Assembly: GCA_023231475.1 (NCBI GenBank)
Contig: JALJEE010000232.1
Span: 1 to 64,000 of the forward strand
Direction: 5' to 3'
Length of the DNA: 64,000 bases
Source: Seison nebaliae
Taxonomy: Eukaryota
The notes under the pieces are model-generated. The model worked only from the letters and a program-made list of their open reading frames with translations. It made no database searches and was not told where the DNA came from. Both the position numbers and the translations under genes were made by a program. This document shows, piece after piece, positions 920 to 43,396 of the stretch; position 1 is the stretch's first letter; each line of letters begins with the position of its first letter.

Positions 920-2506
920 ATGGATGAATTAATAGAATTGTTAGAGAATGAGCCGAATAGTTCTACGGACGATGAATCGATGAAAGAGACGAAGGAGGAA
1001 GAGGAAGGAGATGGAAACGGGGATGATGAGGAATTTGACAATTGTGTCATTTGTATGTGTCCGTTCACTGTGAATGGAAAGCATAAAATGTGTTCATTGA
1101 ATTGTGGCCATGTGTTCGGACAGAGTTGTATTCTTGAATGGAATAAACAGACGATAGGAGGACATTGCACATGTCCAACATGTAAAAAGAAATCGCATGT
1201 TCTCGATTTTAGGTTAATTTATTTCGGGAAGAACCGTATCAGTGATAAGAGTGAGAGGGATGGATTAATAAATCAAATCAACGAGACGAAAGAGGAATAT
1301 GATCGATTGATGAATGATTTCAATACGTTGAAGGAAGAGAAATTTTGTTATACTAAATTATATGAAGCGGAATTGTTAAAGAATCGGAAAGCGATGAAAT
1401 TGGATAGTGAAACTTGTGGGAATTTCATTCGACATCACTCCACCGTCAATCTTTGTGGTGACGGTTCGTCCAATTCCAAATATATTCAATTCGATCGACA
1501 AAGAAAGAAGTTGCTGATATCACAAAAATTGCCCAAAAAAGATGGATGGGGCATCAAATGTTTAGACCCGACACGACCAATATCGGTCAGTTTGACGCCC
1601 ATCGGTTATTCCATCATTCGCGATATGAAATTGAACGAATCTTTCCGAAATGAATTGTTGTCGATTAGTGTTGATAATTCGATTTATATCTCGTCACCTG
1701 TCGACCATCGAGAGAAGTTAAGTGTCGACACTTCGATGTTCACTCGATCAGCCTCGGCCTGTTGTTGGTCGAATGTGAATGAAAATTTATTTATGGTGGG
1801 AGATGAGTCGGGTGCTCTCCATTTATATGATAAGAAGAATACTAGTCGTCCAGTTCATACTCTTTCTTCGAATGACAACAACCCCATCATTCGACTGATC
1901 AACGGGAAAGTGAAAGATAAAAATTTATTTTTAGCCACATCCTTCACCGGTCACATTAATTCTATAAACGATTTAACAACAGCCGCGACCGTTGTCGCAT
2001 ATCCGATAAAACAAACAGAGAAAGAATTGGAGAGAAATCGATATAACATCACATCGACTATTTTTGCGGAAAATAATATTTTCGTTTCATATCGTGCCAT
2101 CGAAAACCGACCGATGGTAGATCAGTGCCATTATCAATTAGTGGAGAATTCTTCAAATCCATCAATCGAACCATATCATCTCAACGGCGTCTCAATCAAA
2201 GCGTCAACTCCGAAGAATATTTTCATCACACGATCCAAAGCGTCTCTCGTTTATCCGTCATCAACGGCGTCAGGTGTTTACGCTTTTACTGACGAAACGA
2301 AAAATAATTTCCAAATCGTCTCCTTTAACAATTTACTCGTCGATCATACATGGGAATTCAACACGAAAACGTTCGTTCGAGATTTCACTATGCTTCACTC
2401 ACAATCTAGTAAATTAGAGAAGATTTATGCTCTCACTGATTCTGATCTCTATATATACGATTTCGTCCACACCAGCAAATGGAATTATTTAGTCCCAGAT
2501 TTATGA
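920..2506 (+). CDS. RFWD3: RING finger and WD40 E3 ubiquitin ligase, RFWD3-like
   Basis: Intronless 528-aa ORF. Acidic N-terminus, RING 'CVICMCPF...SLNCGHVFGQSCILEW...CPTCKKK', coiled coil, then WD40-like repeats ('IIRDMKLN', 'CCWSNVNENLFMVGDESGALHLYD'). This matches the RFWD3 architecture. Confidence 0.85.
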   Translation: MDELIELLENEPNSSTDDESMKETKEEEEGDGNGDDEEFDNCVICMCPFTVNGKHKMCSLNCGHVFGQSCILEWNKQTIGGHCTCPTCKKKSHVLDFRLIYFGKNRISDKSERDGLINQINETKEEYDRLMNDFNTLKEEKFCYTKLYEAELLKNRKAMKLDSETCGNFIRHHSTVNLCGDGSSNSKYIQFDRQRKKLLISQKLPKKDGWGIKCLDPTRPISVSLTPIGYSIIRDMKLNESFRNELLSISVDNSIYISSPVDHREKLSVDTSMFTRSASACCWSNVNENLFMVGDESGALHLYDKKNTSRPVHTLSSNDNNPIIRLINGKVKDKNLFLATSFTGHINSINDLTTAATVVAYPIKQTEKELERNRYNITSTIFAENNIFVSYRAIENRPMVDQCHYQLVENSSNPSIEPYHLNGVSIKASTPKNIFITRSKASLVYPSSTASGVYAFTDETKNNFQIVSFNNLLVDHTWEFNTKTFVRDFTMLHSQSSKLEKIYALTDSDLYIYDFVHTSKWNYLVPDL

Positions 2507-3552
2507 TTTTCGTTTTATCCTGCATAACTAATATTATGTGAAACTGATTTGTTTATCAAAAATAATTGTCTAGAAATTCTGCAATTCTGAATTATGAAAA
2601 TAAAAATTTTTTGGAAATTTTTATATTTTTTAATATTAAAAAACTTTTCAAACCATTCAACAATAACGATTTCTGTGTCACAGAAAATCACATACAAATT
2701 CCTGAGAGACGACGAAAAAAATAAAATATTTGAAGAAACTTATATCGTATCTTTCTTTAATTTATTTTTAGCAGAACGATATTAAAATATTCAAATATTT
2801 TTCAAACTGAAAAAAAGAAAATTTTTTTTGACATGTCTAAAATGAATAATAATTAATTTAATCATTGAATGATTATCATTCAGTTGTTTGGGGAATGACA
2901 TCTTCTTCCAAGTTAATAAGGATGATGAACAATTCTTGAATTTGTACGAAACAATGACAACCATTAACGAGGAAATTAGAATAGTCCTTAAAATATAATG
3001 AACTATAGACAGAAGAGAATAAGCGTCGGAAAAAATAGATTTCTGTGTGCTCCTACTAGAACTTCTCAATTTGTTCCTATCTCTTTATTACAAGTTTGGG
3101 ACACCGTTATGTTTCCCGATGTAAGTAGATTCATGAACTAGATAACATGTATCCGTTGCAATGTTTAATTATGATATTATTAGAATCCTATTGGAAGACT
3201 GTCTCTCCATCAGTTTTGTTCTCCTTGTATTGTTTTTTATTAAAGAATAGACCAAATGAAAAATTTCATACAACATTGTTAGTAATGGACTGTCTTTTTT
3301 TAATAACTTTTAATACCAAAATTTTTTTGAATCAGGATGAGTTCAACACTAGAATTTTTGCATCAAAAATTTCTTCATGAAAAATGATGTCATTTAACTT
3401 TGTAAATTCTCAGCTTTATCTCAATTGGACCACAAGTGAAGTGGCTGCGCTCAGGATTTATTTAATTCAAATTAAAATAAACAAATAATACATAAAATTA
3501 AGAAGTATTTTCTTGACGACGATGGAAAGAAGTATGAGACTGAAAGAAGTTA

Positions 3553-4031
3553 TGTAGTACTATGCTTAATGGCACCAATATTTTATCGTTACTCTAACTT
3601 CAATGGGCTATTCGCCCAGTACACCCATAATATTCGCAAGAATGAATTCGCTTATTCGCTAGTAGGTTGATAAATTATTGTATTTTAATCTCTTCTTAAA
3701 TTGTTGAATTCTGGTCGTCGATCATTTATGGTCTGGTGAACGTAACTTATGCGTAGTTGTGGTTAGGTGGTGAAAATATGTGGGGATAGTTTAGGGGGAA
3801 TCTCTTGGTATGTGCGAGAATGTGCGAAGACTATATAATGATATCGATAATTCGTCTGGAACGTATCGATATTATTAATGATATTTTGATAGTTCTTATC
3901 GCTTCCACAGATGGTGATGGTTAACTGATGGTTGTGGTTGATAGCTTGATAGAGTCTGTTAATAAATGATTAATAGCCCATTGAACTTAGAATAACGATA
4001 AAATATTGGGGTCATTAAGCACAGCACTACA
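3553..4031. mobile_element. Non-autonomous TIR element (MITE-like), about 480 bp
   Basis: 3550-3612 (ttatgtagtactatgcttaatggcaccaatattttatcgttactctaacttcaatgggctatt) is the reverse complement of 3972-4034 with only a handful of mismatches. Termini TGTAGT...ACTACA are flanked by TA on both sides. No internal ORF. Confidence 0.8.
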
Positions 4032-4514
4032 TAAGTGTAGTTTCCTTGTCAGATAAATTTCCACCGACTTCCAGACTAATAATTTTATTCATTTGATTGT
4101 TACAAGTATTAGAATTTCGAGTGAATGATGAATTTTTCGGACTAATTTTATTTTCGGCTCATTCGCTGACTTTCGGCATTCTTCGCCATCAACAATTTTC
4201 CCGTTCTTGCTAATTATTTTGCGAAATTAACTTCTTTTTTATACTTTATCCAAATTGAAATTATACTTACAATTTGTTAAATAAATAATTATAATAAAAT
4301 GGATAAGTTGATTTTATTCAATGTTTTCGTTTCAATGTTTACAATAGAATTTTGAAGAAAACACGCGAAAAATTGAAAATGTTAATTTTCGATATAATTA
4401 AATTTGGTGCAAGAAGAAAAGATGTTAACTTCCGTATGGTTAATAGAAAATGTTGGTGAAAAAATAAATGTGCAATCAGAGAAAAACATGGAGAAAGGAA
4501 AAGAGAAGTTCCAT

Positions 4515-7500
4515 TTAACGTTTTCGACAATCACGTCGAAGAATACGTAGGAAAGTTTTTCGAAATTGATTGTTAGCGAGTGCATAGCAAAAAGGATTAA
4601 TTGGTGAATTAAGATAACAGAGCCAGTAGGAGACATTATATAAATCTTCGTTGACCAAATCGATTCGATAGCCTCGAATGACACTCAGTATATGCCACGG
4701 CGTCCAACAGAAGAGGAAAGCGCCCATAATAATCGTTATTGTCCTCAAAGCCTTTCTGGCCCGATTCTCTGAACTCCTCGATCTTGGTTGTTGTCGATGT
4801 TTCATGTTCGTCACTGCATGTGATATCGTTCCACTGATGAAGTCGCGATTCTTTCTCTTGTTATGTCGATGTCGACTACTCCCCGTTCGCGATACGTTAA
4901 AAACTCGATTACGGAGATTCCTTTTCTCATTCGTATTGGGATGACCATCGATAGCGGAGGCCATACCTATACAACTGTCGTCGGTGGGTGTTGGTGGATG
5001 GTCGAAACTGTCATAACTGTCCTTATGATGAGCTTTCATTAGAGAGCCAGAATTATCTTTCTTAGAAAGACTACTGTCATTCTTGCTTAATGTTTGAGGG
5101 ACGGCCGTCAAACGATTCAAAGTACTAATTGAACAATCGATTAATGACGACGAAGTTTTTCGTTGTCCAATCGAATATCGTATCATCGGTGTGGATAATG
5201 CGTCCTGATTATTCGTCATAGATGTACCGAAATTATTCGTGGTAAGAGAATTAGTTTCGATGAAGGTTCGATATGAATCGTTATTTAATTCCGATGTCGT
5301 CAATTGATCGGTTTGTTGTTGGAATAATAATTTCTTCGTTTCACCAGTTCTCAACATCTTCTTTATGTAATCTTTAAATGATACCGGTTTCTTATTCATC
5401 GTTTCCGTTCTTTTATCTTCTTCTTCTTCTTCTTCTTCTTCTTCTTCTTCTTCTTCTTCTTCTTCATGCGGCAATTCACATGATGGACTACTGAATAATC
5501 TCTTGGGATTATGTCCTTTCTCACTCATGAGAATCTCTTGAGAACAAAGTTCGTTATTCGGCTGCAAATAAGGTAAATTCTGGTTGGAAATTTGTTCATT
5601 CTCTCGATTGAGACTACCAGTGTCTTTGCGAATCAAATTGTTCGGATGATACGTGGTAGGCGACGGAATGAGTACGGAAACTGTGGAATTAACGACGGAT
5701 TCGGGACATGTCGTCCGTTTCTTTATTTTCAAGTTCTTCTGCAACGGACTCTTAGACAAATTCATTTGTCGTTCATGACGTTTCTGTCTCTTACGACAAA
5801 CGTAATAGAATGATGTGGGAGTGAGACAATGGTCGAATTTGGTCGTATGACGATTCTTTAACGTCGATGATTTATTTTCCTGATTCTGATTTTTCTCATG
5901 AACTTGATAACGTCGATGACGGTTCTTTTTCGGTTTGCTCTTACTCTTCCGTCCAATCACGTCACTATCACTATGAATACTGATCTTTCTCGATTTGTTT
6001 TTTCTTTTCTTCTCCATCTCATTCAACATTTCACTATCGTCGTTCGATTGATACAAATTTTTGTAAAGGAAATGGAACTGCTCCGTTTGAGACAATAACA
6101 TTGTCGACGAGGTGTTACGAATTTGACAGACACGTTCCGTTGATTTGGCTGATCGAGTAGTTTTCAAATAATTTTGATTTCGTCGTTTTCTTATCGACAT
6201 TTTCTTCTCATGCGATTTCCGTTTTTTCGATAATGTTGAAATGTTCTTCGTCGGTGTAGTTGTAGCATGGAGATTAGATGGAACGATTCGGTTCACTTTC
6301 GACGTCTCATGTTTCACGTCGCCAGTCTGTGAACGATTTTTATGTTTGGAATTATGTCGATTTCGATGTATCAATGGCAATTGATCGTCGGATGAATATT
6401 GTGATTTTCGATTGAATCTCTGACGTCGTTTATGATCTTTCAATCGTTGATTGATATCGATCGAATGAATCTTTTCGACGGACGATAATAAAGATTTCAT
6501 TTGATCATTATTAAATTTCTTCATGTTCAACGACGTAATCTGACAAATTCGAGGAGTTGTTTGACGTTTTAATGAATAATTTTTATTCTTCTTACTAGAA
6601 TTATTCATTTCGATATTCAGTTTACAAGTTTTTGCCGAACAGGTCCGAGTGAATTCAATGGGGACAGCAGACAAGGCGGTTTGAGTGGACGCCGCTATTC
6701 TTTTGTTAGTTGAAGTGATTTTTCCTTTTTTCATATTTCTCTTCTTCAACTCGGAAGAAAGAGGTGAATTATCTTTTGTTATATGATGAACGGGCAACGA
6801 TTCGATTTGTTTAAGAATAATTTCATCTGTATTTCGTTGAAAATCCAAATCGTGTTGAGCTGGTGAAGACAATAAAGATTTCCGTTTCGTTCCTAAATCT
6901 GACGGTTTTTCCGGTTTGATTTCTGGTCCCAATTTCGAGATTGATGAGAAAGTTGAGAAAGAATCTTGAGGTTTTTCAACAACTTCCAATGAATCGATTT
7001 GTTTATCATCCACTCGCACTAATGACGATTGTGACGGGGATAAGGAGGATGATAACGATCTCTCCTCCAACTTCAATGATGGTGATGATGAATTTGAAAT
7101 GGTTTTCGTTTTCAATTCTTGTCTCATCTGCTTCATTCGTGCCGTCCAATCTTCAGCATCCACATCGACTAATGTTTGAGGTTTGGGTGGAACTTCACTA
7201 ATGATTGCCTGATGCATTTTATATGGATTTTTGTTATTGGTTGTGTTATTTGTATCAAAATTATTAGTGGTTGTAGTAGCGGTGACGGTGGATGTTGGTA
7301 CGACACCTTTCCGACCAAATCGAGTAATTTTTATCATATTTGTCGGAGTGAAAACATTCGAATGATTTTTAGTCACTCCAACATTTTCCTTCTTTTTCAA
7401 TTTCTTATTTTTCCGTTCTGTCGAAATCATTCGAGCATAAACGATCGATGAATTGGATGTTTGACTAATGTTGGACGAATAATCGAAATCATCGACATTT

Positions 7501-8157
7501 CCTGCGTATTCTTCCGCTTCGTCCGAATCGTTTACGTCGTTATAGAATGATCGCTTCATGGAATCCTTATTGTAAGTGTGTTCGGAGATTTGAGAGACGT
7601 CATTGGAAATCATTCGATGTCGTAATGGATTCCAACTACGATTCTTCTTATTCACTAGAATTTTTCCTTTCAACTCTTCACTCTTCATCGATTCTCGATC
7701 CATCATTCTTTTGGACGACATTTCCTGTTTCTTCCGATTGCGATCTTTTATCAACACGTTCGATATTGGAGTGATTTTCGTCTGATTCTTCTCACTCTTC
7801 ATGGCGATGGTCGTTATCATATTCGTCGATTTATTGTGAACGGACGACGTATCAGTTTGTGTGATGATTACCGCGTTTGTCGACGGTATTGATATGGTAC
7901 CGAATGTTGTTGTTGTTGTTGCTATTGTTGATGCTTTCGATGAAACGGGTAATAATGAGGTTGACGAATTGATGTTATTCTGATTATGATCTTGATCATC
8001 ATCCATTAAATCTCCTTCATTCAAATCGATAATTAAAGAATCTTCTCTTGATTTATCTTTCAATTTCCTCGAAGTATCTTCCGATGTTAATTGTTTGAAA
8101 TCGGAACGACTATCCTTATTCTTGGTAACCAATAACGTTCCCGAAACATTCACTCCT

Positions 8158-8189
<32 letters not shown>

Positions 8190-8963
8190 GTTATTATTGT
8201 TATTGTTTGTTGCATTATTATTATTTGCATAACGTGTACTCTTACCGCCCACTAATCGATTAACTTTTCGTTGTTTCAATCTTGATCGCTTCTCCAGACT
8301 ACTTGCAACACGATAAATGAAAACGTAGAGAACGATCATGACGATTAACGTCGACCAGAAATAGCAGCAAATTAGAACGAAATTAAATTGAGCATTCTTC
8401 ACAAATTTCGCTTCGCATTGATTGTCATCATTTTGGTCTTCTCGTACGAAATAACGCCAACCAAGAATGGTGGTGAAGAAGATAACGGCGGGTAAGAACC
8501 ATGTCGTCATGATAATGATGACGACTTTTCGCTGAGTTCTCCATTTGCGATATTTTGCCGGAATCTTCACAGAACAATACCGATCGACTGTTATGGCCAA
8601 GACAGTATAAATGGAGGTCAAACAAACGGTGTAGTCCAATGAGAGCCACAATTCACAAATGATTCTACCGAAGCTCCATTGACCCATCAGGATGTAGGTT
8701 GAGAAGAGTGGCATTGAGAAGAGTCCGAGAAGACAATCACTCACAGCCAAAGAAAAGATAAAATAATTAGTGGCATGACGGATTTGTCGTTCGAGAAAGA
8801 AACTGAGTAATACAAGAACGTTACCCGCCACCGTTATGAAGCTCGTAATTCCTGCGAGCAATCCTAAGAAAATGATGAGTGGCAACGGATATTTAGAGGA
8901 AGTAGCCGCCACTACCACATCAGTATGACTGGTCGTCCACAATCGATTACTGCTCACATTCAT
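4515..8963 (-). CDS. Muscarinic acetylcholine receptor, B-type/GAR-2-like (minimal model from the first ATG; the frame is open far upstream)
   Basis: 7TM motifs: TM1 'ITVAGNVLV', TM2 'NYFIFSLAVSD', TM3 'LWLSLDYTVC' with amine-binding Asp3.32, 'DRYCSVKIPAKYRKWRT' (B-type-like), TM6 'KALRTITIIMGAFLFCWTPWHI', TM7 'SYWLCYLNSPINPFCYALAN'. ICL3 is about 1,190 aa. First in-frame ATG is at 8963. Confidence 0.92.
5416..5465. repeat. (TTC)n microsatellite encoding poly-Glu in receptor ICL3
   Basis: About 16 tandem TTC units (GAA on the minus strand). Confidence 0.9.
8161..8225. repeat. (ATT/GTT)n repeat encoding poly-Asn in receptor ICL3
   Basis: Translates as NNNNATNNNNNNNNNNNNNNNN on the minus strand. 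Confidence 0.9.
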
Positions 8964-11900
8964 GAATGGGTTGAGTGGAAGCAATGGCGATTGAGTTCCA
9001 TACTCGATGAAAATTGAATGATTGAAATGGTTTCGAAATTGCGGCAGATAATACTTTCGCTTGCTAAAGTTATCTGATTTATCTGGTTGTTTCGGTGTGG
9101 TGGATGAGAAGTTGCTTGATGGAACGGTATAATAAGATAAAGGTGAAAATCGTGGAAATTTATGAGATTCCGATGTCGGTGATGGTCGTTGTTGATGATA
9201 ATCCAATGTAACGTTATTCAAAGGTGAATCGGTTGTGTGAGCGTTACTAAATTTCACTTCATTCAAAATACGATAAAGATGCTCTGAAAATTTATCAGAT
9301 TTCTTCGAATTATCGATTAGATTTGTATCAATATTCTTATCGTCAAACAAGATGGCACGACTATGTTTCTGAGACGGTTGCGTATGGATCGATTTGTTGA
9401 ATAACAAATTCTGACAATGAATACAAATATCATTCAAGAACGTATGTAATTGATCGTTGGTTGTAGTTCGTCTGTGTAATTGAAGACAATATTGAGCCAA
9501 TAATGATCGATCGATAGTGATGATGGTTCGTAATCGATTCGATAGTTCGATGTGAATATTAGCGGTCGAATTGGACGAGCAATTATATGTTTGATTGAAA
9601 GTGGACAGAACGTTCTCGACTAATTCGACGTGAATAGCCTTCCCACTACCCAACGTTAATAGAAGGAAGATGGAAATCAGATTTCTGCGGTTGTTTGGTA
9701 GGAAAACGGGAAAATAACTTTCACTTATTCGAGAATTATGTTCACGTTTTGTCGACGAATAATGAAATGGTTTTATTCGATTCTCTCGAAAATATCTCTC
9801 GTTCTCTAAATTCTTTCCATTACTCTTCTGATTCTCATGAGATGACGTATAGAGTTGACATGCACTTGTAAAATTTATCGAATAATCTTTCTCACTCAAA
9901 TAAGTCGAATTGGAGATTGACCCATAATCAAATAATTGTCGATATAGTAATGAAAAATCATAAAATGACACAGAAGGAAGTGAATGGAGAGCATTGAATT
10001 GACTCGATCGAATTCGGTTGGATTTATTTTGGATGATTAGTTTGAAAATCGATTCAATATCATTCTCAATTGTGGTTCTTTTTGTTGTTGTTGTTGTTGT
10101 TGTGATGATTGAGGGTTGTGGAGGAACTGAAGAAAGACAATTTACAAGTCGATTAAAAAGAAAAATTGCCGATGAAGTTGGAGGAGGATGTTGTGTTGAT
10201 GATTTGGATAATAATCGAAATGGTTCTATATGTATTGAATGTTCAGAATTGTAATGATGGAAGAAAATGAAACAATGGAATTGGATAAACTTGCAAATCG
10301 ATTGTAAAGGATATGATAATGATGATGATGATGATGATAATAATGATGATAATATACAATTTTTCAAAGATGTTAATTCATACACGTATTGATATATCCT
10401 ATCTGATCGGAACGTTCGAGATGTTAATGCTACTATTAGAGATGGAGGAAAAGTTCGTCCTTTTCTTCTTATCTGATCACTATAATCGAATAGATCGACT
10501 AGGATCTCCTTTATCTGATGTTGTTGGTGAGTGTGGGAACGTTGGAAGAAATGAGAGACGGTGCCAATACGTGTGAAATTGATGGAAGTTGTTAATAATA
10601 GAATTATGCGACAATCCCAATACAATTTTGTAGCATAAGTCAATTTTTGAATAATTGTCCGAAAGATGGTGGAGGATTCGATGGCATCGACTATGTTCAC
10701 CGTATCGACATAATCTGATGAATAATAATTATCATAAGGATGATGATGATGATGGTAATGATGACGGTGATTGTGAAGGTGATAAAAGCGAGTATTCTGA
10801 TTGTGATTAGGTGTGAGTGAGTTATTGTGAATGTATTGATGAGGAAGATCGATAATCGATAGATAGATGAATAAGAGGATGAATAGAATGCCTATCTGCC
10901 TCCTAGCATGAAATCTACTTTTCCATTGAAATATTGAATAGAGTTCATCATCAGTTCTACTGATTAGACAATGACAATAGTAGTATTTCCACCTCCTTCT
11001 CAAATGTCGATTGTCTATGAAACTATTTTCACAATTTACATATATTATTGAATTAAGAATAAATGCATCGCAATTATGAAAATATTTTACATCATTCCAT
11101 CTATCCAAATTATTCTCCTTCGATATATTACATGGATTTCTCCTCCTTCTCTTCCTCTTCCTCCTTCTCAAATATTCTTCTTGGTATTTTTGTTGATAAT
11201 ATTCCTCCTGCTCGTCTTCTTCTTCTTGCTCTTGTTGTTCTTGTTGTTGTTGTTGACGCGAAAACTTATTGGCACGTTCTTCTTTTTTAATGTTTCGTTG
11301 ATATTTATGAGGTCCTCCCGAATAATGTTCACGTTCAATTGTCTGAAGTGAATTGTTCTTTTGCTCCTTTTCCCACTTTTCTTTTTCTTCATTTAATCCA
11401 TTCCTCCATACTAGCACAATAATTATTGCAATTAGTCTTCTGATTGGAAGGATGATGAAGAGACATGACGATAAGAAGAAGAAGATGAATATTGCTAATG
11501 TTCTTAATTTTATTGGGAGAGTTCGAACATTTCTTGATTTTGTCAGGAATTCCTTCGATTCGACTTTCTCTCTCGTTAATGCGACGATAGTGGAGTGGTT
11601 GAGAGAAACGATATTAGTGAGAACGATTATTGATTGTGATGATCGAGCAATAAATTGAATTATCAATAATTCATTACAACATAACACATCGGTAACTGGT
11701 CGTCGTATGTGCAGACGAGTTTGCTTGATATGAAACGAATAAGATGAGAAATGGAAAAGCGTCAATTCCCATTCACGAAACGGTTTTGAGAAAGTTCTAT
11801 TTGGTGTTAATTCCGAATATTTCTGAGGTGATCGTTGCAAGCGAATGCAGGATGAATGTAAAACCGAAGAAATATGAAAACGATTTGAATGGTTTTCGTT

Positions 11901-12656
11901 CTGATGATTTATTAATGATGTCAATTTAACGATATCTTCAAAATCATCAAACTGATTACGTGTGAATAGAGAATGTTCTAATAAGATGGTATGATTAGAA
12001 GGAGTCGTTGAATGTTTATTGCTCGATATTCTCTGTCCCACTGATTTGATCTCTTCTCTTCTTCTTTCATCAGTTACGGCTCGTCTCTTCTCATTTATTC
12101 CTCGTCTGTCTTTTACACCAAACGATTCTGACGCAATACAATTACACAATGGCTTAATCGATTTATGACATCGATCTTGTATCTTCAGGCACTTCTCATA
12201 AGATTGTGAGGAGGATGAGAATTTATGAAAATCGTCAGCAAAAGTATAAGAATCATCAAATTCAGATAATGACGAATAAGAAGAACAATTGGAACAGCAG
12301 CAACAACAACAACAATAATAATAATAATAATAAATTAATTGAATCGATTGTTGTCGTCCTTTACGGTTGTGATGAGGAGAATCGAACGAATTGATATGAT
12401 TTCTGATATGTTTTTCTAGACTAGTGAGAGTTCGTTGGAGGATATGTCGAAGGAGAATAATCCGTAATAGAATCGTCTGAAAGAAATTATTGGTAGTGGT
12501 AGAACGAATTGGTCGTTCATTCTCCTTTCTTCGTACCTTCTTCCAATAATTTCCTCGTCTTCTTCCAGTAGAATTGGTGGGAATGGAAGGAAAAACTAGT
12601 CTGAAATATTCGAAGTTTAACCGATTACCATTCGGGAATAAGTAGACTAAAAGTGA
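8964..12656 (-). other. Stop-free, Met-free in-frame upstream extension of the muscarinic receptor ORF (1,231 codons)
   Basis: The provided 2544-aa ORF starts at TTG (12149) and has no further Met until MNVSS. Manual translation upstream stays open and ATG-free to a TAG at 12659-12657. Confidence 0.85.
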
Positions 12657-15600
12657 CTAACTGGATTTTAATTGATTTCGCCCAATTCTTCTTCTTATTG
12701 ATCGAATATTGCTGAGAAATGTCCCATCTAATAACAAATAGAGAAGACGATGAGTTTAGGATAATTTTCCATTGGAATCATATCATCCTCCCCCCTCCCA
12801 TCCCCCATCACCAGCACCATCGACATGATGACATTCCTATTATTTATGGGGAAAATTTCGTTAAGTAACTTCCTAGTTTATTCATTTCCCTCTCGCCCCT
12901 CCGGTCTACCTGTCTCTCTGCCGTGATCCGACGACGACAAATACCAAATGGGAAATTCAAAAATATATTCACTCAACTTCCAATACTTCATGGAGATAAG
13001 TAATAAGTAAATAGGAATCAAGCGGCCAAGTTCGACGTAAATGGATCTGTTAAGATCTTTTTCAACTCCGTATTCTTCATCGATTGATTACCCTAATGGT
13101 AATGAAGGGAATAAAGAGGAGAAGCATTCGATATGAGTCATAAGGGAAAGAAGATTTATTTATGTCTAACGAAAATCCTTTTAGCACAAACATTTCTTGG
13201 GCAGAAGGAAGACAAAAACCTGAATTAGAGTAATAACTTTCTATTTCCAAATCATTCACCGATATCATCTAAATTACCGTTTTCGATAAGATTACGTATA
13301 ATGTCATATTAATTCTCTAGTTGAAATAAATATTCTTTTCCAACACAATTTCCACTCATCGAAACGCGCGCGGGAAAAACATGATTTGGAAGAAAAGGAA
13401 AAAACAAGAGATATACGATATTCACTCATCGAATGTTTTCGGTTGATTCATTCAATCGATTGAATGTAAACTGGAAATAATTCAATTTATTTCAACTGCT
13501 ATGACAGAACGTATAAATACATCGAACGATAATACTCTCCTCCCAATACTATGCTAATATTCTTATAACTTTCCCGAAAAAATTCAATCACCTTCTCATC
13601 AATTTCATCTGTTCCATCCGACACTACATCGACCAAACTGAATTATTGAGATGTCTCTCTATCTACCATCTCTCATTCCCCATTTTCTTTCGTAATATTC
13701 GCATTTTTTTTTTCATCGTTACAATTGCCAATTCTCGTGTACAATCATCGAAATTCAAATTAATTATCTTTAATTCGAATTAAAAGATAAATTATTATCA
13801 ACTAAATAAAATGAGTTCGATTCATTCAAGAAACAATATCGATGATATTTGGAAAGAATTTCATTTTTTATTTTGTTGTTTGTCAGACAATATAATTCTG
13901 ACAATTCGGCAGGTAAACAACACGTAAACATGATGTCCGTTCTACTACAGCAATTCTCTCTCGTCAGAATTTGTGAAAGGAAGCAATAATTAAAATAAAT
14001 AAATTATTCGGTTTTGGGATAATCCAAAAAGGAAAATAAACAAAACGAATCTTCCAATTGTCAATGAAAATTATTGGGAAAATTTATTGAATAATTGAAG
14101 TGAATTCAATTGAATTATTTAGTTGATTGATATTGTAACGGAAGAGAATATTTCTTTTCAAATTTTTCATTAAATGCATCATTTCGCCTCATACGAAATT
14201 TATCGGAACACATTTTCATTTTGGTGAGTTGATGGAAATAGAAAATGTTTCGCCAATTCCTCCCGATAAATTTACCTAATCCCCACCATCCGAATTAAGT
14301 TAACGAAATAAAATTAATAGCATAATACTATTAGAGCGCATTCCTTCCATTATTTTTCCGACAATGAGATAATCGAAAATTTATAAAAAAACCTTTGTCA
14401 CTTCCTGAAAAAAGTGATTGTACTTCCAATAATTAAATAAAGTGGTAAAGTCGAATTGACTAACGATATTTTAATTCCAGTTAACTTCCATCATTCACCT
14501 CCTCAATCACAGCCAACCTATCTCTAATTCGGATTTTTGGACACATGCAATTCTCCTTTCAATAATCTTATCAGTTGCCAAAGCAACTATTAAAATTAAT
14601 TTTATCTATTTCGATTACATTTTAATGATCGTCAACTTACTCTCATCGAACGCAAGTCCAGAGAACAATTATGTTCTCATCAGACAATTTTCAAGACTTT
14701 CATTCATTCGTCATAACTCCGTGAAGGTTGATGGAATTTAAACGGATTTTCCATTGACAATCTCTCTCAACGTACATTTCTTCCATCGACATGTTATTTC
14801 GATAGGCACGAATTGATAGGAAGTTTTACTTAAAAGAAATTCGATTTCTCCAAAAAGAAGAGAAATAATATGAAATTAAATGGAATTTCTGCCTTATCTC
14901 ATATCGGAATGGTGTCTGCCAATATTACACGGGGCGACAAGTGACGATATGTTAAGATGAAATACTTAAGAAGAAGAAGAAAAAAGGAGGAAGAAAGACG
15001 AATATCAATAAATTTTAGAGAAGAGAGGAATATATGCAACTTCCATCCCTACATGATATGATAAGCAGATGAATAATAAATTTTTCATCAGAAATTTCTT
15101 CCTACAATTATCATTACATTATCTTATAAATGGTTTGTCAATGCCAATTATGGAGACAAGAGAAAGATAAAATTGAAAATTAAAAAATTGTCTTAAAATC
15201 CCAATAAGTAAGTTATCTACTTTCTAATTCTCTAATGATCATTCTGACGCCGTCAACGGAAAATAATTCAACAATTCTCACCAACCGTACAAACCGGTTG
15301 ATGGTGGGGAGAACTCAAGCACGAGCGACAATTCGTCAACGTTTAGACGTCACATATTTGAAGATAAAAAACCGGAATTGTATTACTCGTCCATGCTGAT
15401 TCGTGCGTCTCCTGAGAACGACGAGGGAATGATGGGAATGATATGGATATGGGAGGAGAAGCCTATGATTAGGTAGTCTAATGACAATAATTATGAGGGA
15501 GAATAGTAATTAGAAGGAGGAGGAGAAGGAGAAGGAGAAACGGAGGATGAAATGGGAGAATTGGGAAATGTGTCTTCCGTATTGGGAATTTGGATCTCAA

Positions 15601-18600
15601 TTTACAAGTTTCATGGGCGACTGGACGACGATGATGATGGATGAGAGTCGATCGATTACGCTTATGGAGAACGAGAAATTTCGAATTCGACTTCATGACT
15701 TAGATAAAATTACATCATATTCGTATTTGATATCATTTATCATTTTTTTGTGTTCTAATGGAATTTGATTGAATGTAGTCATTAAGTAGAAATTGGGTAT
15801 AAAGCAATAAAGGAAATGTTCTTTGATATGAAACGATATCGACATCGAATAATTGACATGAACGCAGTTATTTATCTTTTCTTCTAATAAAATTTCAGAA
15901 ATTTACACTAATTCTCTACTCCTCTCGTCATTATGATTATTATGAAATTGAATTGCATTCAACTTATCCAATATGCGCATATTATTTACCATTCAATTGC
16001 ACTACGAAAGGAATTACCTTAACATTTTTATAAACATACCCGACACAGTCATCCACATACCAAATAATTCCACACACACATCGATAGATATATCTTTACC
16101 AAAGATATATAATTTGATAGACGTCAACGAAAATGAACATGGTAATGACATCTGACTGTGAATGAGCATAAAACTTGACGTGACTCATATTGATAATCTT
16201 TCTCATCAAATAAATTTATGAAAATGCAAAAAAAAATTATATGATGGAGAATTCTATTCATCTGACTCCATATTCTCCTCACAATTTCAACTTCTCCAAC
16301 AATGTCAAATATTGGACCATATCTCCACGTATCCATGTCAGTCATACACCTCCTACAACAATTCTTCTACTGGAATTCTTCAATTGTATTTCTATTTCAA
16401 TCCCATCTCAAACAGCTCAAAATTCTATGATATTATGAATTTTATTAAGATACTAAAAAAGTTTCTAATTTCACTTCAGTACATCAGATGTGAGTAGAAA
16501 AATCATAAAGATGAATCTTCAGTAAAATTTTACTCTTCAAAACTTTTCCATTTCATGAGTTGGAAGATGATTTCAATATCGTTGTTTCGGAAGATCTAAT
16601 ATTAACTTTTTTTTTCTTGTTATGATGTCCGTTTGCATGATGTGAAACCTGAATGAGAAATCTGAATATTAAAATGAATCGTTATCTAATGACAGCGCTA
16701 CTAACCACAGACAGTTGAAGAATAGGAACTCGAGGTAGTTTGTCATTGGGGAGACCATTTTCAACATATTCTTCTTCTAATTTTCAGTTTTACAGTTGAT
16801 TATCGTTGCAAGTTTAAATACATTCTTCAACTTAATTTCTCCATCAATTCGCAGTTAACGCTGTGAATGTAACTTGTTGTTTTTGGTGTATTTATGTACT
16901 GAAAACGAATCGATCTACAAAACTATAACAATTTTCTGAAGTGGAATAGGAAAATTAAATTGATTAAGGATATATTTGGCAATAAAATACGTCTTGAGAA
17001 GTTTCTTGATAAATAATAGAAAAGCAACGAAAGAAAATGAGAGAAAAGGAGGTTCGGTAAATCTTATTAATTAATTTCCATATTTGGTAATTGGATTAGT
17101 AAATGAAATTATGCTAAAGGGGAAAGTTGGACAATTATTCGTCCGAACATTATTCCATTTAAATAAGTTTCCTTAGTAATTTTTTGATTTTTCCGGAAAT
17201 GATATGATTCCAAAGCAAAGTGTTAATTTTTAGAATTAATCTCTCAATTGACGTCCAAAGGCAACGTTAACGGTGTCTGCTAATTAAGCCAGACTCATTC
17301 CTTCAATGAGACATATTTTATAAAACCCAAATAAAAATGATGAAAATATCGATCTTTTTGGTATATTTTACTGGTATCTTTTCATCTTTCTTGTTCATGA
17401 CGTAGTTAAACAACTTTCGATGAAATAAACAAATTTTGAAAAGAGAAACCCTTAAGCTTTACTTATCTTTATGGTGGTGTTTTAAACAAATTTTTCAAAA
17501 CTTCCAGTTCTCTTTCAACAGATCATAATTATGTGATGGGAATGTAGGGTTTGAAACGAAGACAACCGAAGTCATTTTACATGAACCGATTTCCACTGGA
17601 TAGTTTGTGGGATAGAAATCATTGCAACTGGAGGTATATATAGTATATTTTTGGCGGGTGCAGCGCATTAATCTACAGAGGTTCCCAATGTACTGACAAG
17701 TGTTGTGAGCACAAGAACTCCTAAGTGTGCATCTCATTTCAGAATACTTGGAGAATGACTATGAAAGCATAGATATTTGTTATCACTGACCGTAATGGAT
17801 GAGATCGATCCACAAAAATTTAAATCGTTTAGACTGGAATTATCAACAATAAAGAATGAATGCACATAACCATCGTAACGGATCGGAAAGCAATTTTAGT
17901 AGTTTAGGAGAAAAAATGGAAGAAAGCGGGAAAAAGAGCCAGTTGACACAGAAAGAAAAGATCGAGGAGGAGGAGGAGGAGATGTTTGGTTAAGTTACAG
18001 ATGATACTAGATCTCCTAGAAAGAATTAGAGAAATTGAAATGAACAATAAAATAATAATGTGGATAATGAAAAGCGAAATGGTTACTCAGTTTGATGATC
18101 CTGCGAAGGAGAAAATAAAAAATATGATTAATCACTATCAAGATATGTAGACATGATGCCATTGAAACTGCATTGGACGAATGAGATATGTAAAAACATG
18201 AGATGTGCGTGTGAAAGCAGAAGAGAAATCGTTGCAATCCAAGTTAATTCAATTAACATTTTTCACTTTTGTTCATATTGATTTTCCCAGATTCCTTACA
18301 AATAATAAGATAAGAAAGAAAATAATATATGTCTCCTGACAATTTGAAAATAATTAGTCATACAATTGGAGAGAGAATCTCCAATCCCTCCAAATTATCT
18401 ACTACATTATTATCTGACCCATTTAACACGAATGTAATCGAACGTTCAAAAATCATTCAATTACCAATATCCATTCCTCTAATATTCGTTTCGTCATCCA
18501 TGACACATGGATATATTGTCATTCTACCGCCAACAGCATCACATAGAGCAACAACTTCTTATTATGAAAGGTAAGGACTCTCATGTCAGATCAGGAACAA

Positions 18601-20038
18601 CTTTAAAATAAAAAAATATTTCAAAAAAAATGTTGAGAACTTTAAGAAATTTGATTTGAAACTTAAAAATTAATTTCATAAATTTCAATATCTCTCATAA
18701 TATTCTTAATATCAGTGATAGAAAAGATGCCAAAAGTTTTGGCATCAGTAATCAGTAATCTGATGATCAGGCATCAATTTTTGGCACAAAACATATGTAT
18801 ACAAAAGTAATAAACTTAGGCGCTCAAACTTAGAAAGTTTATTCCGGACACACACTAAATTGATTGATAGTGACGGCGATCCTGGTCTCCCCAGTCCAGG
18901 AATGACTTTTACGATGTGCTTCGATGGAAACGATTACATTGGACTAAAACGTTGACATAGAAGAAGTCGAAGACTAGAAGTAGACAAGGAAGCTGATGTG
19001 TACGAGGAGGAAGAAATGGAGGAACATTTAATCGAATGACCATCGATTAGAATGTCCCCGTTGTCTTTATAGGAATATCAGATTAGAAGTGAGAAGCGGA
19101 ATTGTGAAGAGAACGTGCCATATCTCGCAAAAGATGATCAGTCGTCCTCGCTGGCGAAAAGTGGTATAAGAAGATTGTGGAAGAGAATTTTATTTGTAAT
19201 AAGAACGAATCAAGAAAGAAGTATAGTGGAATGAATGTAGGAAGAGAACGATAAGGAAAAGAATTAACTTCTTTTTTCTATTCATTTATTCCGGTAATTC
19301 ATTTAACAGCCACTTGCTAACGTCGATGCTAATAATAGATATTTTTGTTAGTATTATGTCGTCATTCATATATTTGCCACTATTCTTATATAATTGTTTG
19401 TTCTCTCATTCTCCCTTCATCTGTCTGTCTATCCATTAAACTGATGACAACGTGTTACAAATGTACAATTATCCTCTAAATTCTTATGTAAATCTTACAG
19501 AAATTCTATAAATCTTCAATTCATTTACTGATCAATCTCTCAATTTTTCCATCACATCATCTTTTCCCATATTCTTCTTCTTATTGTTCCTATTGTTGTT
19601 GTTTTTAGGTGTAATAAGATAAATCAATTATATAAAGAACTTGCCATGTATTTTGGAGAGAATAATGATAATGACGGTATTTATTCAATTAAATTTTCAG
19701 TATAACACTTCAACATCCACACATCTGATTCCATTACATTTTTCCTTTAAGATAGGAACCTGAACTTTGGGGGAAAACATGTGGAAACAGCGAGGATGAG
19801 ATCCGTCAGGCATTCTACCGATCAGGTTCATTGACTACATCAATAATGTGAGAAAAAGTAGTTTATATTCGATTGTTGGACCTTTAGACATATGAGAAGA
19901 TGATTCTGACATAAACATTACACTGCTCGTAAATTATTTATTTCTTTGCACATGAACAATAAGATGAAATTAAATCATTGTTTAAGATGAACTGATGGTA
20001 ACCGGACAGATCGTAACACTATATAAAAATTTTGCAGC

Positions 20039-20973
20039 GGACAGTTTTCAACCCAAAAATCGGGAGTTCTCAACCTAATTTTTTATACTTCCGGACAGTT
20101 TTCAACGTACTATTAAGTTTTCGGACAGTTTTCAACCTCCAAACATAATGAAATATGAACTGGAAAAATAATAACCGGACATAAAAATCCTCCAGAAGAC
20201 CGTTATTAACTCATAATTAGTTCTAAAACTTTTGAGGAAAAGGGACAGTTCTCAACTTCAAAACACACTGAAACTGTAAATTCGCAAAAGGACAACTATT
20301 AAGTCATAATTATGTAATTATATCTTATAAAATTATAAGAATTTATATAATAACTCTTTTTAGCATTTTAAATTGTTCAAATGAAAAATTAAGAAGAGTG
20401 ATATTTATTGTTCGAAATCAAATATGAAATTAACTTTCACAAAATATATTATCGATTTCGATAAAAAAAGAAGGTACATTCTTCTGTCGAAATTTATTAC
20501 TAATCTTTTCAGTTTCTCATCTTTCACCCTATCGGATACTCTTTTTCTTTTTTTCGCCTTTCCGAAAAAGCCTAAGACCGTTATTTTCCCTCTCTATTAG
20601 ATTGTTTATTCTGGGAATATCTTCAATGGTTCGTTGATTATTATTCATTTAGATGTAGATTTTTGGTAGTTTAATGTTGAAGATTTAAAAAATAATAATA
20701 TTAGCAACAATAATCAAATTTATTGCAATATATGTCAATGCAATGTCAATATATTGTATAATATTTATAATACGATTAGTTGTGCCAAATAGAACTCTAT
20801 TTACGTATTAATTGGATGGATTAAACTTCTTTCTTAATCTTTAACTGGGAATCATTGTTCCAGCTAAACCTATAAAGTATATAATGTGGTTGACATGACA
20901 TTTAAAAATCAAACTAAGTATAAAACTGTCCTGATTATGAGTTAAAAGTCCTCTGGAGGATTTTTATGTACGG
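20039..20973. mobile_element. Degenerate DNA-transposon relic, probably Mutator-like (MULE)
   Basis: GGACAGTT(T/C)TCAAC repeats at 20039, 20093, 20123 and 20243. A ~45-bp inverted pair lies at 20175-20220 and 20931-20973. Between them is a frameshifted minus-strand fragment 'RTIEDIPRINNLIERENN...KRKRVSDRVKDEKLKRLVINF' resembling the PRTNNxxE C-terminal region of MULE transposases. Confidence 0.5.
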
Positions 20974-21276
20974 CTGAGAATATTTGACTGTAATGTTATT
21001 TCTGAATTGGCAATACCATCTAGAATACTATCTTTCTGTAATTTGAAATTTTTTTTCGCATATTACTGTTCCGAACTCTACTACTAAATTAGAGAATAGA
21101 AAGAAAATAAGTGAAGCTAAAAGAGTTAACTTAATTTTTGAAAAATGAGAAGGAACTGGAAAATTGAAAGAAAATAAATTTTAAATTGTTAGTTTCTCCC
21201 CAAGAAAATCATTTATCTCAATTTATCATTATTATTTATCAATATTCCTGAAAATTGTTCTTTTCATTGTTATCAG

Positions 21277-24200
21277 ATGCCGATGATTAAACGTTCGGGA
21301 AGTATAAAAAAGACGAAGAAAGAAAAGAGTTAACATATTCGTCATTTCTCCCATTCTTTAACTTCTATTCTATACAGTTATTCCATCAACTTCTGGAGTA
21401 ACTTCAACTTCAACCACTTCTAAAACGACGAAAGACATTCTCTCCTCCACCCGATTGAAGAATGAGACATTCGATTCATTTCAACAAGTCAACTGGTCAG
21501 CAATTCCATCAGTCTCATCCTCATCCATATCATCAAATACGTTAACGAGTAATATCTCCAATTTATCGCTCTATAATCAGGAGAAAATAATGACGTGTGA
21601 AATCTTGAAAGTTCTCAGTGGCATTGAATCTCAATATATTCATATTAAAATGAATGGATATCTCTCTCCATTAACGATAGTGATCAATAAACAGATCGAT
21701 CATAATTTACGATCGACAGCAAAAGATATTCTTATTCTCGCTTCTTATGCTAACGTGTTAATGGAATATTTAGATAATGAGATGGAATCGAAGAAATATT
21801 TAAAAAAATCAAAAATCGTTTCAATTTATCATCAATTCATTTACGCTCTAATTACCATCAAGAAGGAATGGCTCCTATTTTTATGTAATTTAGAATCGTC
21901 AATATTCTCGTCGTCGATCAATCCGTTCGATGTGAAAACATCGAAATATTCTCAACAGAAACTCGTTTATCGTTTCAATAATCTTCGAGAATTGGGCACG
22001 TTGTGTTATGATATCAAAAATCAGATGAATGTTCTCGCTCAAATTATTACCACCGTCCACAAATCCTCATTAATGGGAGTACCACTCTTGTCTTTATTAC
22101 AGGAATTGACGTTAAGAAATACTGGTAATCAGAGTCGATATCAATTGTGTTGTTATGTTTTCCTCCTCTCATCTGAAGGATATATGGGACATCTTTCAAA
22201 TTGGATTTATGAAGGCGAATTAATTTCCATGAATTTTGAGAAAGATGGTGAAATTGATGATATTGGAAATGAGCAGAAATTTATGATAAAACAAATCAAT
22301 GATGAACATTATGAATTGAGTGATGTCAAAGAAAATATTCCTCAATTTCTTCATTCAATTCGAATTCCCATTTATCAAGCTGGTGTTTGTACGGTGGCAA
22401 TGAAACGATTGAAGGAAAGAGAAAAATTTGAATTAGAAGAAAATAAGAAACCACTTCATGTGATGAAGAGAATAAAAGTAATGAATGATTCGAATTATTT
22501 AATTGGAAATAATATGAAATTCGAATGGAATTATGACGAATTAAATAATATCATCAAATCTCGTTATACGGCCATATCTCAGGAATTACTCCAATCTTTA
22601 ACTAAACGTCATTCGATCGATTCGATTTTTCGAATATTCAAAAACATCTTTTTCGTTTCTAATAACGATTGGTTAGTGGCGTTTGTTGATCGAATCCAAT
22701 CGACACTTCATTCACCAGCCATCAAAGTAAATTGTGATATTTTAACAGAACGTCTCTATCATTGTATTTCACAAGAATTAGATGATGGTGCTTATGAATC
22801 GATGAATGATAATTATTTCTCGAAAGCATTCTATTCGAACGAAAACACTTTTCAATCACATACATTCCTCATGGATGAAACGCCAACAATCGATACGAAT
22901 TGGTCATTGAGAAATTTATTAAAATCATTTTTTATTCAAACTTCTTCCATCGATTGTATTGATCATTTGAAATTATTATTAATAAAAAATCGTTTAAACA
23001 ATCAACAACAACAACAAATAACAAATGAGAAAATGAATAATGAATTGATGGAGGAAAAGAAGAAATTTAATGAATTAATTAAGAAAATTGAAGAGAAGAA
23101 ATCGAAAGAAAATCGTTTGACTCTTCTAGAATCCATTCAATTATCAATTAATCTCAATTGGCCATTAACGTTAGTTTTCAATGATAAATCGTTAAGTCAT
23201 TATCAATTATTATTCCAACATATATTCTATGTGAAACAAGTGGAACGAAGTCTCAATAATTTGTGGTTGATGCAAATGAATTATGGGAAATTATTTTCTT
23301 CAGGAAAATTGAAGAAAAGACGACAATCCACACGACCACCCACACCCTCCACAAATTTCAAATTAGATCGAAGTGAAACGAAATTAGTTTGGAGAAGTTT
23401 TAATTCGGCGAATGCTCTCATCAGAAAAATGGTGTCGTTCATTCGCAGTTACATTCTCTTCCTTCATTATGATACGACCGAACCGATTTGGAATGAATTT
23501 TTTGAAAAATTCAAATGTATCAAAACTTTAGACGAATTAGATTATCTACATTTATCCACATTAGATTTGATCATAACGAAAATATTTATGAAATGTTTAT
23601 CAATTCAACGACGACTCTTCAAATTATTTGCGACGATCATCTCATTTTGTAATTATATGAAACGAATTTACAAATCAGTTAATGTGAATAATCGAAAGAT
23701 TGGAATATCTATCGCCATAGCATCAGAAACAATTCATCGACTTCTCCTCCAATTTACCACATCTGAAAATTTCATACGAACAATTAATGAACATGAATCG
23801 AATTTCACAAATGACATCATCGGATTATTGGCTGATGTAAATTTGTATGAAATGGAACAACCAGTAATTACGATTCCAAAACATATGAAGAATGTCAATA
23901 TAATTTTGAGACGATCTCATTTAATCAATATCAAATCATTATCATATCGTATAGATTTTAATTCATATTATCAGAATCATCAAAATGATAATTTATTCTC
24001 TGGTTTAACGAACAAAACTCCACAGAGATCTGCTGACGATGAAATGAATTCATCCACCACTTCTTCCTCCCTCTTATCCCACCATAACACTAACACATCT
24101 ACTCCACGTAACGAAACTGATAAAGTTCATAACGACAAAGAAATATCAAAAAAGGAAAATAATTTGAAAACTTCTCAATCCCATGAAATCAATCAACGAC

Positions 24201-42312: not shown

Positions 42313-43396
42313 TTAAATTTTCCAAATCCTCAATTGATTCATATCGCCACAACTCATAAGAAATTTACAATTTTCTTCTTTTATCACTCTCAAAAATTTA
42401 CAACAATTCACTTCAGCAAATTCATGTGCTTTCATCTTTAATATTTGTCGTTCGATTTCATCTTTCTCCTTATCAATTCTCAACAATTCCCACCAACCGT
42501 TACTGCTACAAATGGCGATATTCAATCCCAACACATCGATATGATACAAAACAGATTTTGATGGAAATTCCATCGTTTTCAAATAAATCCATTGATTATT
42601 GTTCGTTTGTTTCTTCCAAATAATCAAAGTGGAATCAGCTGAAACTGAATATATATCCTCCTCAACAAATTGACAAGACCAGACAGTTGATTGATGAGCA
42701 GTCAACGTTTGATGGAATATCCAATCGTCTTCGATATCGTTTTCCGTATCAATATCCACATATCGATAAATATTAATTGTATTGTCATAACTTGCACTAA
42801 GCAACAACAATTTAGATGGATGCCACGACACGAATTTAACATCTTGTGAATGAATATGTTGAACTGAATGAAAATTTAATGGAAATATTTAAAATATTTA
42901 AAAGAGAAAAATAACTAGAGACACATTCGAAGGGAAGATCGACATGTTCATTTTGATCTTCCCAAATCCATACACTTTTATCTCGTGCACATGTCGCAAC
43001 AAAACGATCGTCAAAACTCCATGAACAACATTTAACTTCCGTCGAATGACCATCCAATATGGCATATAATTTGAGGAAATAAATCATCTTCTCATCGTCA
43101 TCATCATCATCATATTCCTTACATAATTCATATACATAAATGTTGGGATAGAATCCACTGACACATATTTTATCTCCTTTATGATTCCAGGAAATACGAC
43201 GTGTCGTCTTCAATTGTCGAACGTCATCGATAGGTGGACGAAATTGAAAATTGATTTTCTTAAATTCTTCTTTTTCATATTTCCAGAGAGATAGATGTAA
43301 TTCCTTCCCACAAACCCCAATCAATTTCTCTTTCTCATTCTCATCACAATCCCACAAAATTGAAGAATCGTTCTCTAATGAACTGACTAAACTCAT
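42313..43396 (-). CDS. CIAO1: Cytosolic iron-sulfur assembly WD40 protein CIAO1/Cia1; exons 43396..42916 and 42863..42313
   Basis: 'LDGHSTEVKCCSWS...VATCARDKSVWIWE...FECVS' spliced through a 52-nt intron (42864-42915) to 'HSQDVKFVSWHPSKLLLLSASYDNTI'. Total 343 aa. Confidence 0.92.

Follow-up and report, generated by a model that had tools for sequence, protein, structure and literature searches.

The window, a stretch of 64,000 nucleotides of Seison nebaliae DNA (assembly GCA_023231475.1, contig JALJEE010000232.1, positions 1 to 64,000), is gene-dense animal DNA with about 32% GC, and its genes are mostly single-exon. Besides the receptor gene described here, it carries genes for RFWD3, a gamma-tubulin complex component, GRIM-19 and a second GPCR, as well as WD40, zinc-finger and Kazal genes. 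Seven introns were deduced in the window from domain continuity, all of them 44-52 nt long and beginning with GTT. In a protein collection, exact look-up found two neighbouring genes but not the receptor, either as the 1,482-aa or as the 2,713-aa form.

The receptor locus and its open frame

On sequence grounds, the receptor is muscarinic and gar-2/B-like. It matches PF00001 (rhodopsin-family 7TM) with an E value of 2e-56, its closest matches are gar-2-type receptors of invertebrates and muscarinic receptors of vertebrates, and the best solved structures are those of M2/M4/M1 (E 4.5e-62). Compared with M2/M4, the LDY of TM3 and the YWLCY of TM7 are retained, and TM6 carries WH in place of YN; replacement of the TM6 Tyr-Asn pair of M1-M5 is what we take to be the mark of B-type muscarinic receptors. 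A quick maximum-likelihood tree of 70 transmembrane cores places the receptor as sister to monogonont and bdelloid rotifers (SH-aLRT 95), on a long branch, so that the animal is probably related to rotifers. The features of the locus are collected in Table 1.

Table 1. Positions of the features discussed in the text, with residues numbered from the first codon of the extension.
Feature	Position	Strand	Remarks
Stop-to-stop ORF	12656..4515	minus	2,713 codons
ATG- and stop-free extension, in frame with the receptor	8964..12656	minus	1,231 codons (3,693 nt)
Distal part of the extension, about 989 codons	9690..12656	minus	No homologue; codon bias weak; contains trinucleotide expansions and 39 of the 42 out-of-frame ATGs (12631-9820); putative disposable leader
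Hydrophobic stretch, residues 377-416	11409..11528	minus	Kyte-Doolittle peak 2.72; possible membrane anchor or hairpin
Polybasic run, residues 498-506	11139..11165	minus	Three R-x-K/R-R motifs, after a poly-Q/E stretch
Hydrophobic stretch, residues 588-606	10839..10895	minus	Kyte-Doolittle peak 2.15
Signal-peptide-like stretch, residues 990-1007	9636..9689	minus	Basic pair, hydrophobic core, small residues; crude rule only
Putative ectodomain, residues 1008-1255	8892..9635	minus	Gene-like codon bias, 9 sequons in 1012-1255, only 3 out-of-frame ATGs over the 843 nt preceding 8963
First in-frame ATG, M1232 (codon 1,232)	8961..8963	minus	Overlaps the TGA that ends a 13-codon upstream ORF opening at 9001
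Muscarinic acetylcholine receptor, invertebrate gar-2/B-like clade (predicted)	4515..8963	minus	1,482 aa from M1232, third intracellular loop of about 1,150 aa
Candidate ATG-bearing mini-exon	12736..12826	minus	30 codons, 5 in-frame ATGs; rival start source, sequence-predicted
Candidate intron joining the mini-exon in frame	12647..12735	minus	89 nt, GTT donor, TAG acceptor; longer than all 7 introns deduced in the window (44-52 nt)

The original prediction was that the receptor frame is open from 12656 to 4515, that its first in-frame ATG lies at 8963, and that the codons upstream contain neither Met nor stop. The recomputed coordinates are the same, and a recount gave 0 in-frame ATGs and 0 stops over the 1,231 codons upstream of the receptor ATG. 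The earlier hand count of about 37 Met downstream agrees with the program count of 37 in the 1,482 residues of the receptor part (about 2.5%). No other stop- and ATG-free run longer than 190 codons was found in the six frames of the window, the next longest being 190 codons, and no comparable ATG-free extension was found on the other genes of the window. An antisense gene over the extension was considered and rejected, all three antisense frames carrying 64-114 stops.

DNA contigs of two samples are identical to the window sequence letter for letter outside three microsatellite gaps. Four contig sets were compared, three from one sample (X1, X2 and X3) and one from another (X5), and showed 0 differing letters and 0 gaps in the parts covered (8213-10305, 10358-11135, 11263-12286 and 12342-14000). 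The parts without coverage consist of trinucleotide repeats, and at one of them the gap is bridged at equal length. No polymorphism (alternative letters, gaps or joints) was found among the four sets between 4450 and 14000. With three of the sets from one sample, and one that may be the window's own source, this agreement is not independent conservation; it does speak against a polishing error as the origin of the open frame.

Properties of the extension and of related receptors

The probability of finding no ATG in the extension was calculated under six nulls and ranges from about 2.8e-7 to 5e-14. An order-4 Markov chain trained on the extension itself gives 15.0 expected ATGs (P = 2.8e-7), position-specific composition 15.5 (P = 1.8e-7), the xTG ratio 18.5 (P = 9e-9) and the flanking DNA 27.8 (P = 9e-13), while the Met rate of 1.37% in the N-termini of 168 homologues and that of 2.49% in the 13 other ORFs of the window give P values of 4e-8 and 5e-14, respectively. 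The depletion put forward in the original prediction thus stands, but its size, with P near e^-30, was overestimated, since that value lies at the generous end. The probability of no stop in 1,231 codons is 1e-24 (order-4 Markov) to 1e-36. Beyond stop codons, ATG is the sole triplet depleted in frame relative to the other two frames at P<1e-6. Out-of-frame ATGs number 33 and 9 (42 together), against 31.8 ± 4.8 and 13.2 ± 2.9 expected from 1,000 codon shuffles, and near-cognate codons do occur in frame (TTG 21, GTG 7, CTG 6 and ACG 10); the depletion is therefore limited to in-frame ATG, as had been claimed.

Single-base changes able to break the extension are numerous, 675 of them creating a stop and 186 an ATG, so that a relic or an intron would decay fast. 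The repeat expansions of the extension are of the frame-keeping kind only: its 3,693 nt contain 8 trinucleotide runs, 1 dinucleotide run and 0 mononucleotide runs (of at least 7), as against 4, 10 and 27, respectively, in the 23,806 nt of non-coding DNA of the window. At non-coding rates, about 0.6 trinucleotide and 4.2 mononucleotide runs would be expected. The ATG and stop statistics, together with this repeat pattern, back the proposal that the region is under selection both for openness and against in-frame ATG.

The encoded sequence was scored per codon for coding versus non-coding character. Non-coding DNA scores -0.075, nine genes of the window -0.025 to +0.079 and the receptor +0.065; codons 1-991 of the extension score -0.040 and codons 992-1231 score +0.036. 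One real gene of the window, at -0.025, scores near the distal extension. A split at codon 992, chosen after seeing the codon table, has P=0.0044, and a free change point is best placed at codon 863 (P=0.0095). No homologue of residues 1-1200 was found among 1.84 billion representatives (0 matches), and no Pfam family was found in the extension. A single-sequence structure model, made with no alignment, has a mean pLDDT of 37 and is uninformative. The composition is near that of translated AT-rich DNA (Ala 1.7%, Gly 1.5%), and Cys clusters are present. Hydrophobic stretches, which the first reading of the sequence had also mentioned, were located at the two places given in Table 1, and the R-x-K/R-R motifs of the polybasic run presumably represent a furin-type motif. 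The description of the extension as protein-like is overstated for the first 990 or so codons, which have no homologue, no Pfam match, a pLDDT of 37 and the low score given above; a gene-like score is confined to the last 240 or so. As to a transposon or tandem origin, only microsatellites were seen, with no long repeat and no Pfam match. The search for an Rfam or IRES family over the extension gave two sub-threshold matches only, and folding z-scores across it are flat, the lowest of about 93 windows being -2.1.

The signal-peptide-like stretch at residues 990-1007 was identified with a crude rule, which also fires at residue 684 and finds at least one match in 61 of 300 shuffles (20%). Behind this stretch there are 9 N-glycosylation sequons versus 5.1 expected (P=0.04), and in residues 1-991 there are 13 versus 11.7. 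Among 154 homologues, the same rule picks out 25 with a signal-like stretch at the N-terminus; these include 5 of 10 monogonont-clade rows and several trematodes, and none of the 16 bdelloid-clade rows. Three hints, each of them modest, suggest that the true receptor ectodomain probably starts about 225 codons upstream of the first ATG. ATGs in any frame are few in the last 843 nt of the extension, 3 versus 39 in the first 2,850 nt (a boundary set post hoc), a hint of an additional, short transcript that uses M1232. A receptor begun at M1232, from an mRNA whose 5' end lies in the final 0.8 kb or so, may coexist with the long form.

Related receptors were examined in the best 80 of 408 metagenome loci, 78 of which were scored, and none of the 78 shares the feature. 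In these loci, no more than 87 codons separate the in-frame stop from the first ATG, Met-free runs before TM1 do not exceed 207, and open frames before TM1 reach 592 codons at most, with a Met at position 2 in that longest one. Seven of them have no ATG before TM1; their frames are short (19-121 codons) and look like exon or contig starts. The original prediction had named a conserved, open, ATG-free frame in orthologues as something to look for, and in these distant relatives it is absent. As far as seen among the 78 distant receptor loci, the ATG-free extension appears to be lineage-specific. The gar-2/B-type receptors resemble the present one in the 7TM core, the very long third loop and, in some rotifer and trematode members, a signal-like N-terminus, but differ in having their ATG start close to the previous in-frame stop. 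No receptor homologue of 2,595-5,000 aa was found, which is weak evidence, and the receptor itself did not turn up in any of the length ranges searched.

Among 172 fetched proteins, the longest Met-free run is 463. It belongs to the homologue P0070, which has an N-terminus of 697 aa with 6 Met; the N-terminus of P0071 has 812 aa, 9 Met and a Met-free run of 402. These two proteins, 48% identical overall, have in common a conserved N-terminus of about 700 aa, in which a hydrophobic stretch lies internally and an RRRRS motif is present. They belong to the same receptor family and are like the Seison nebaliae protein in their very long N-terminus, internal hydrophobic stretch and polybasic motif. 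Unlike it, they contain Met and are conserved with each other, and the extension resembles neither of them (best E 1.2 against P0071).

Probable translation of the extension and competing explanations

No near-cognate start stands out in the extension: the first ATT is codon 25, the first ACG is codon 61 (with C at -3) and the first CTG is codon 157, with no GTG or TTG before it. The out-of-frame ATGs open 42 short ORFs with a median of 7.5 codons, and their -3 letters (T 18, C 8, A 8, G 8) lean slightly to weak contexts. Entry by programmed frameshift found no support, as neither an X XXY YYZ motif between 12858 and 11374 nor a stable structure was found (+1 signals were searched by eye only). 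Small introns within the extension that would connect an out-of-frame ATG with the receptor frame were considered and rejected; the one candidate that passed the filters (9348-9284, ATG 9433) skips the signal-like stretch and leaves the upstream frame unexplained.

It is likely that the extension is translated. The explanation that we prefer, tentatively and at somewhat short of an even chance, is a translated leader which ribosomes enter at a non-AUG codon near its 5' end, bypassing the 42 out-of-frame AUGs, and whose product is trimmed at an internal signal peptide. The lack of stops and ATGs in this frame goes far beyond chance, with no depletion of out-of-frame ATGs. Openness over 3.7 kb would require elongating ribosomes. 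The short out-of-frame ORFs would absorb scanning ribosomes, so that receptor output would be set by inefficient and probably regulated entry into the frame; the entry codon would be near-cognate, and frameshifting out of an upstream ORF would have the same effect. Any in-frame AUG in the leader would let reinitiating ribosomes in without regulation, and would hence be purged. Since Met costs nothing elsewhere in the protein (2.5% downstream), the cost of an in-frame AUG would most simply lie at initiation. More speculatively, the first 990 or so residues may matter little in sequence, and signal peptidase might cut near residue 1007; the mature receptor would then bear a glycosylated ectodomain of about 250 aa, as in its signal-peptide-bearing rotifer and trematode relatives.

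A far-reaching form of this explanation would have the GPCR made only via a 3-kb translated lane indifferent to sequence, with non-AUG entry, some forty decoy AUGs passed and about 1,000 junk residues cut off by signal peptidase. We consider it rather doubtful. If true, the leader would be selected for its frame alone and not for its protein, and might represent a genome-wide control device in the lineage. A difficulty for the preferred explanation itself is that dozens of AUGs should thin the scanning ribosomes so strongly that, unless 5' ends vary, an in-frame AUG 2-3 kb further on may hardly be selected against. The two upstream hydrophobic stretches also complicate the membrane topology that this explanation would imply.

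In the main rival explanation, the start would be supplied by an ordinary AUG exon, for example 12826-12736, spliced to the acceptor at 12647. This would give a precursor of about 2,740 aa with a fast-evolving giant N-terminus, the Met gap being a rare accident on a Met-poor composition and picked from a scan of very many genes. Such an exon, which we hold to be fairly unlikely, would account for the open frame with no need of special initiation. The exon would be joined in frame, its GTTATT donor also occurs at a real intron of the window's WD40 gene, and GTT is used by 7 of the 7 introns deduced. By our estimate, a P of about 2e-7, as under the mildest nulls, could occur once in a scan of millions of genes, and P0070 and P0071 do have AUG-containing N-termini whose Met-free runs reach 463 of 697 aa and 402 of 812 aa, respectively. 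The intron would, however, be 89 nt long as against 44-52 nt in 7 of 7 others; 17 textbook-type ATG-donor candidates lie within 3.8 kb upstream, so that one candidate is unsurprising; and the Met gap would be left unexplained at about 2.8e-7 to 5e-14, the longest Met-free run in 172 proteins being 463.

An improbable reading is that the extension is the functional product itself, a membrane-anchored pro-domain or a polyprotein with cleavage at the polybasic site and at the signal-like stretch; in-frame AUGs would be purged since truncated products would evade the control that the extension exerts on the receptor. The hydrophobic stretches, polybasic motif and Cys clusters are consistent with such a product, as is the conserved N-terminus of about 700 aa, with its hydrophobic stretch and RRRRS motif, in P0070 and P0071; the lack of similarity to P0071 (E 1.2), the lack of any homologue or family found in the searches above, the low-confidence model and a composition near that of translated AT-rich DNA (Ala 1.7%, Gly 1.5%) all count against it. 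Still less probable is an untranslated leader or intron, with the receptor starting at M1232 and the frame open by chance, as a relic of lost coding sequence, or as an assembly product. M1232 would give a normal-looking N-terminus of 24-30 aa with an N-V-S sequon directly after it, the 3 ATGs in all frames of the last 843 nt fit a scanned 5' UTR, and there is a donor-like GTTAGT motif at 12661. Chance, however, is opposed by 0 stops in 1,231 codons (1e-24 or less), and a relic by the 675 stop-making and 186 ATG-making changes, under which it would decay fast. The contigs of two samples, with 0 differing letters and 0 gaps over the covered parts, argue against an assembly product, and no transposon family or long repeat was found in the extension.

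Known non-AUG extensions

The open, ATG-free frame is a real and extreme feature, seen in a single genome, and would work like a non-AUG N-terminal extension through the mechanism proposed above. ATG-dependent annotation would miss the likely (predicted) signal peptide and ectodomain of the receptor, and the leader may control the amount of receptor made. If the extension is translated from a non-AUG codon, a frame would be kept over kilobases with little regard to the encoded product. The locus would also be a clean test case for the reach of reinitiating ribosomes and for the origin of long new coding sequence from leader DNA. In a literature search that was thin on subscription papers, nothing of this kind was found for a muscarinic receptor.

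The non-AUG extension of CCDC8 is reportedly about 600 codons long. This gene heads the later human list of non-AUG extensions (10.1101/2022.05.02.490320). In an earlier human survey, extensions conserved across mammals reach up to 300 codons with at most six out-of-frame AUGs, so that the present 1,231 codons are about four times as long as the longest of them (PMC3105428). In R3HCC1, CUG is the sole start and is followed by six out-of-frame AUGs, and in cattle the first in-frame AUG comes eight codons before the stop (PMC3105428). Human R3HCC1 and EIF4G2 (PMC3105428) and CCDC8 (10.1101/2022.05.02.490320) have in common a non-AUG codon as the sole entry and out-of-frame AUGs that block the next in-frame AUG, an arrangement that the receptor extension may share. 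A FlyBase review counts 27 non-AUG genes and shows an example of 48 aa (PMC4528330). If the proposed entry is correct, the receptor extension would be the longest that we found described, and the lengths in the supplement of the 2022 human survey could bear on this claim (10.1101/2022.05.02.490320).

Work on cpc-1 of Neurospora crassa describes a main frame that is likewise open far upstream of the first AUG with out-of-frame AUG uORFs inside it, and near-cognate starts in this AUG-free frame that bypass the inhibitory uORF and abolish uORF2 inhibition (PMC5487733). As described there, the extension in Pezizomycotina spans about 700 nt with two uORFs, is conserved in 100 homologues, has starts proven by experiment and belongs to a transcription factor (PMC5487733). 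The receptor extension, in contrast, has 3,693 nt, 42 out-of-frame ATGs, a predicted start and an internal signal-like stretch, and belongs to a membrane receptor in one lineage so far. If it is translated from a non-AUG codon, the control principle of cpc-1 and R3HCC1 would be stretched four or five times and extended to a neurotransmitter receptor.

The 5' side of the open frame and the first receptor ATG

A short way upstream of the open frame (minus strand, 12656-4515) is a G-rich patch at 12780-12930 of the minus strand, where the sense-strand C/G skew tends to switch sign; the GC content of 12751-13000 is 0.42. This patch may be a promoter or mark the boundary of a transcript. At the receptor's first ATG, a 13-codon upstream ORF (8960-9001, minus strand) ends in a TGA that overlaps the ATG, forming a stop-start overlap, and is directly followed by a one-codon ORF. 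The overlap may be due to chance.

Receptor domains and relatives with long N-termini

The third intracellular loop of the receptor contains poly-N and poly-E runs and is longer than that of most homologues compared. The muscarinic-type homologues P0070 and P0071 possess conserved N-termini of 700-800 aa, which include an internal hydrophobic stretch and an RRRRS motif and in which 463 and 402 consecutive residues, respectively, contain no Met. Among the best 80 of 408 loci, L013 (up to 2224), from a plant-associated metagenome, encodes a muscarinic-type receptor with a 592-codon open frame ahead of TM1, in which Met occurs already at position 2.

Contig depth and introns of the window

A multi-copy repeat at about 20.0-20.9 kb separates two levels of contig depth, 15-16 on the left versus 26 on the right in one sample and 8 versus 13 in the other. 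Depth in 2500-20039 is roughly 0.57-0.6 times that of 20815-22000 in both samples, and no second haplotype was found among the contigs compared with the window. The block is possibly hemizygous or sex-linked, or a collapsed duplicate; depth, however measured, is a poor gauge of copy number.

Coordinates of the receptor loop and of introns placed in the window
Feature	Position	Basis
Third intracellular loop of receptor, about 1,150 aa	4800-8300 (minus strand)	
Inferred intron	21329-21377	domain continuity
Inferred intron	42864-42915	domain continuity
Inferred intron	54243-54293	domain continuity
Inferred intron	55930-55981	domain continuity
Inferred intron	58428-58472	domain continuity
Inferred intron	60069-60120	domain continuity
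Inferred intron	60262-60305	domain continuity

All seven introns placed in this way are 44-52 nt long, and their donors are GTT in 7 of 7 (variants GTTA, GTTT and GTTC), unlike the usual GTA or GTG.
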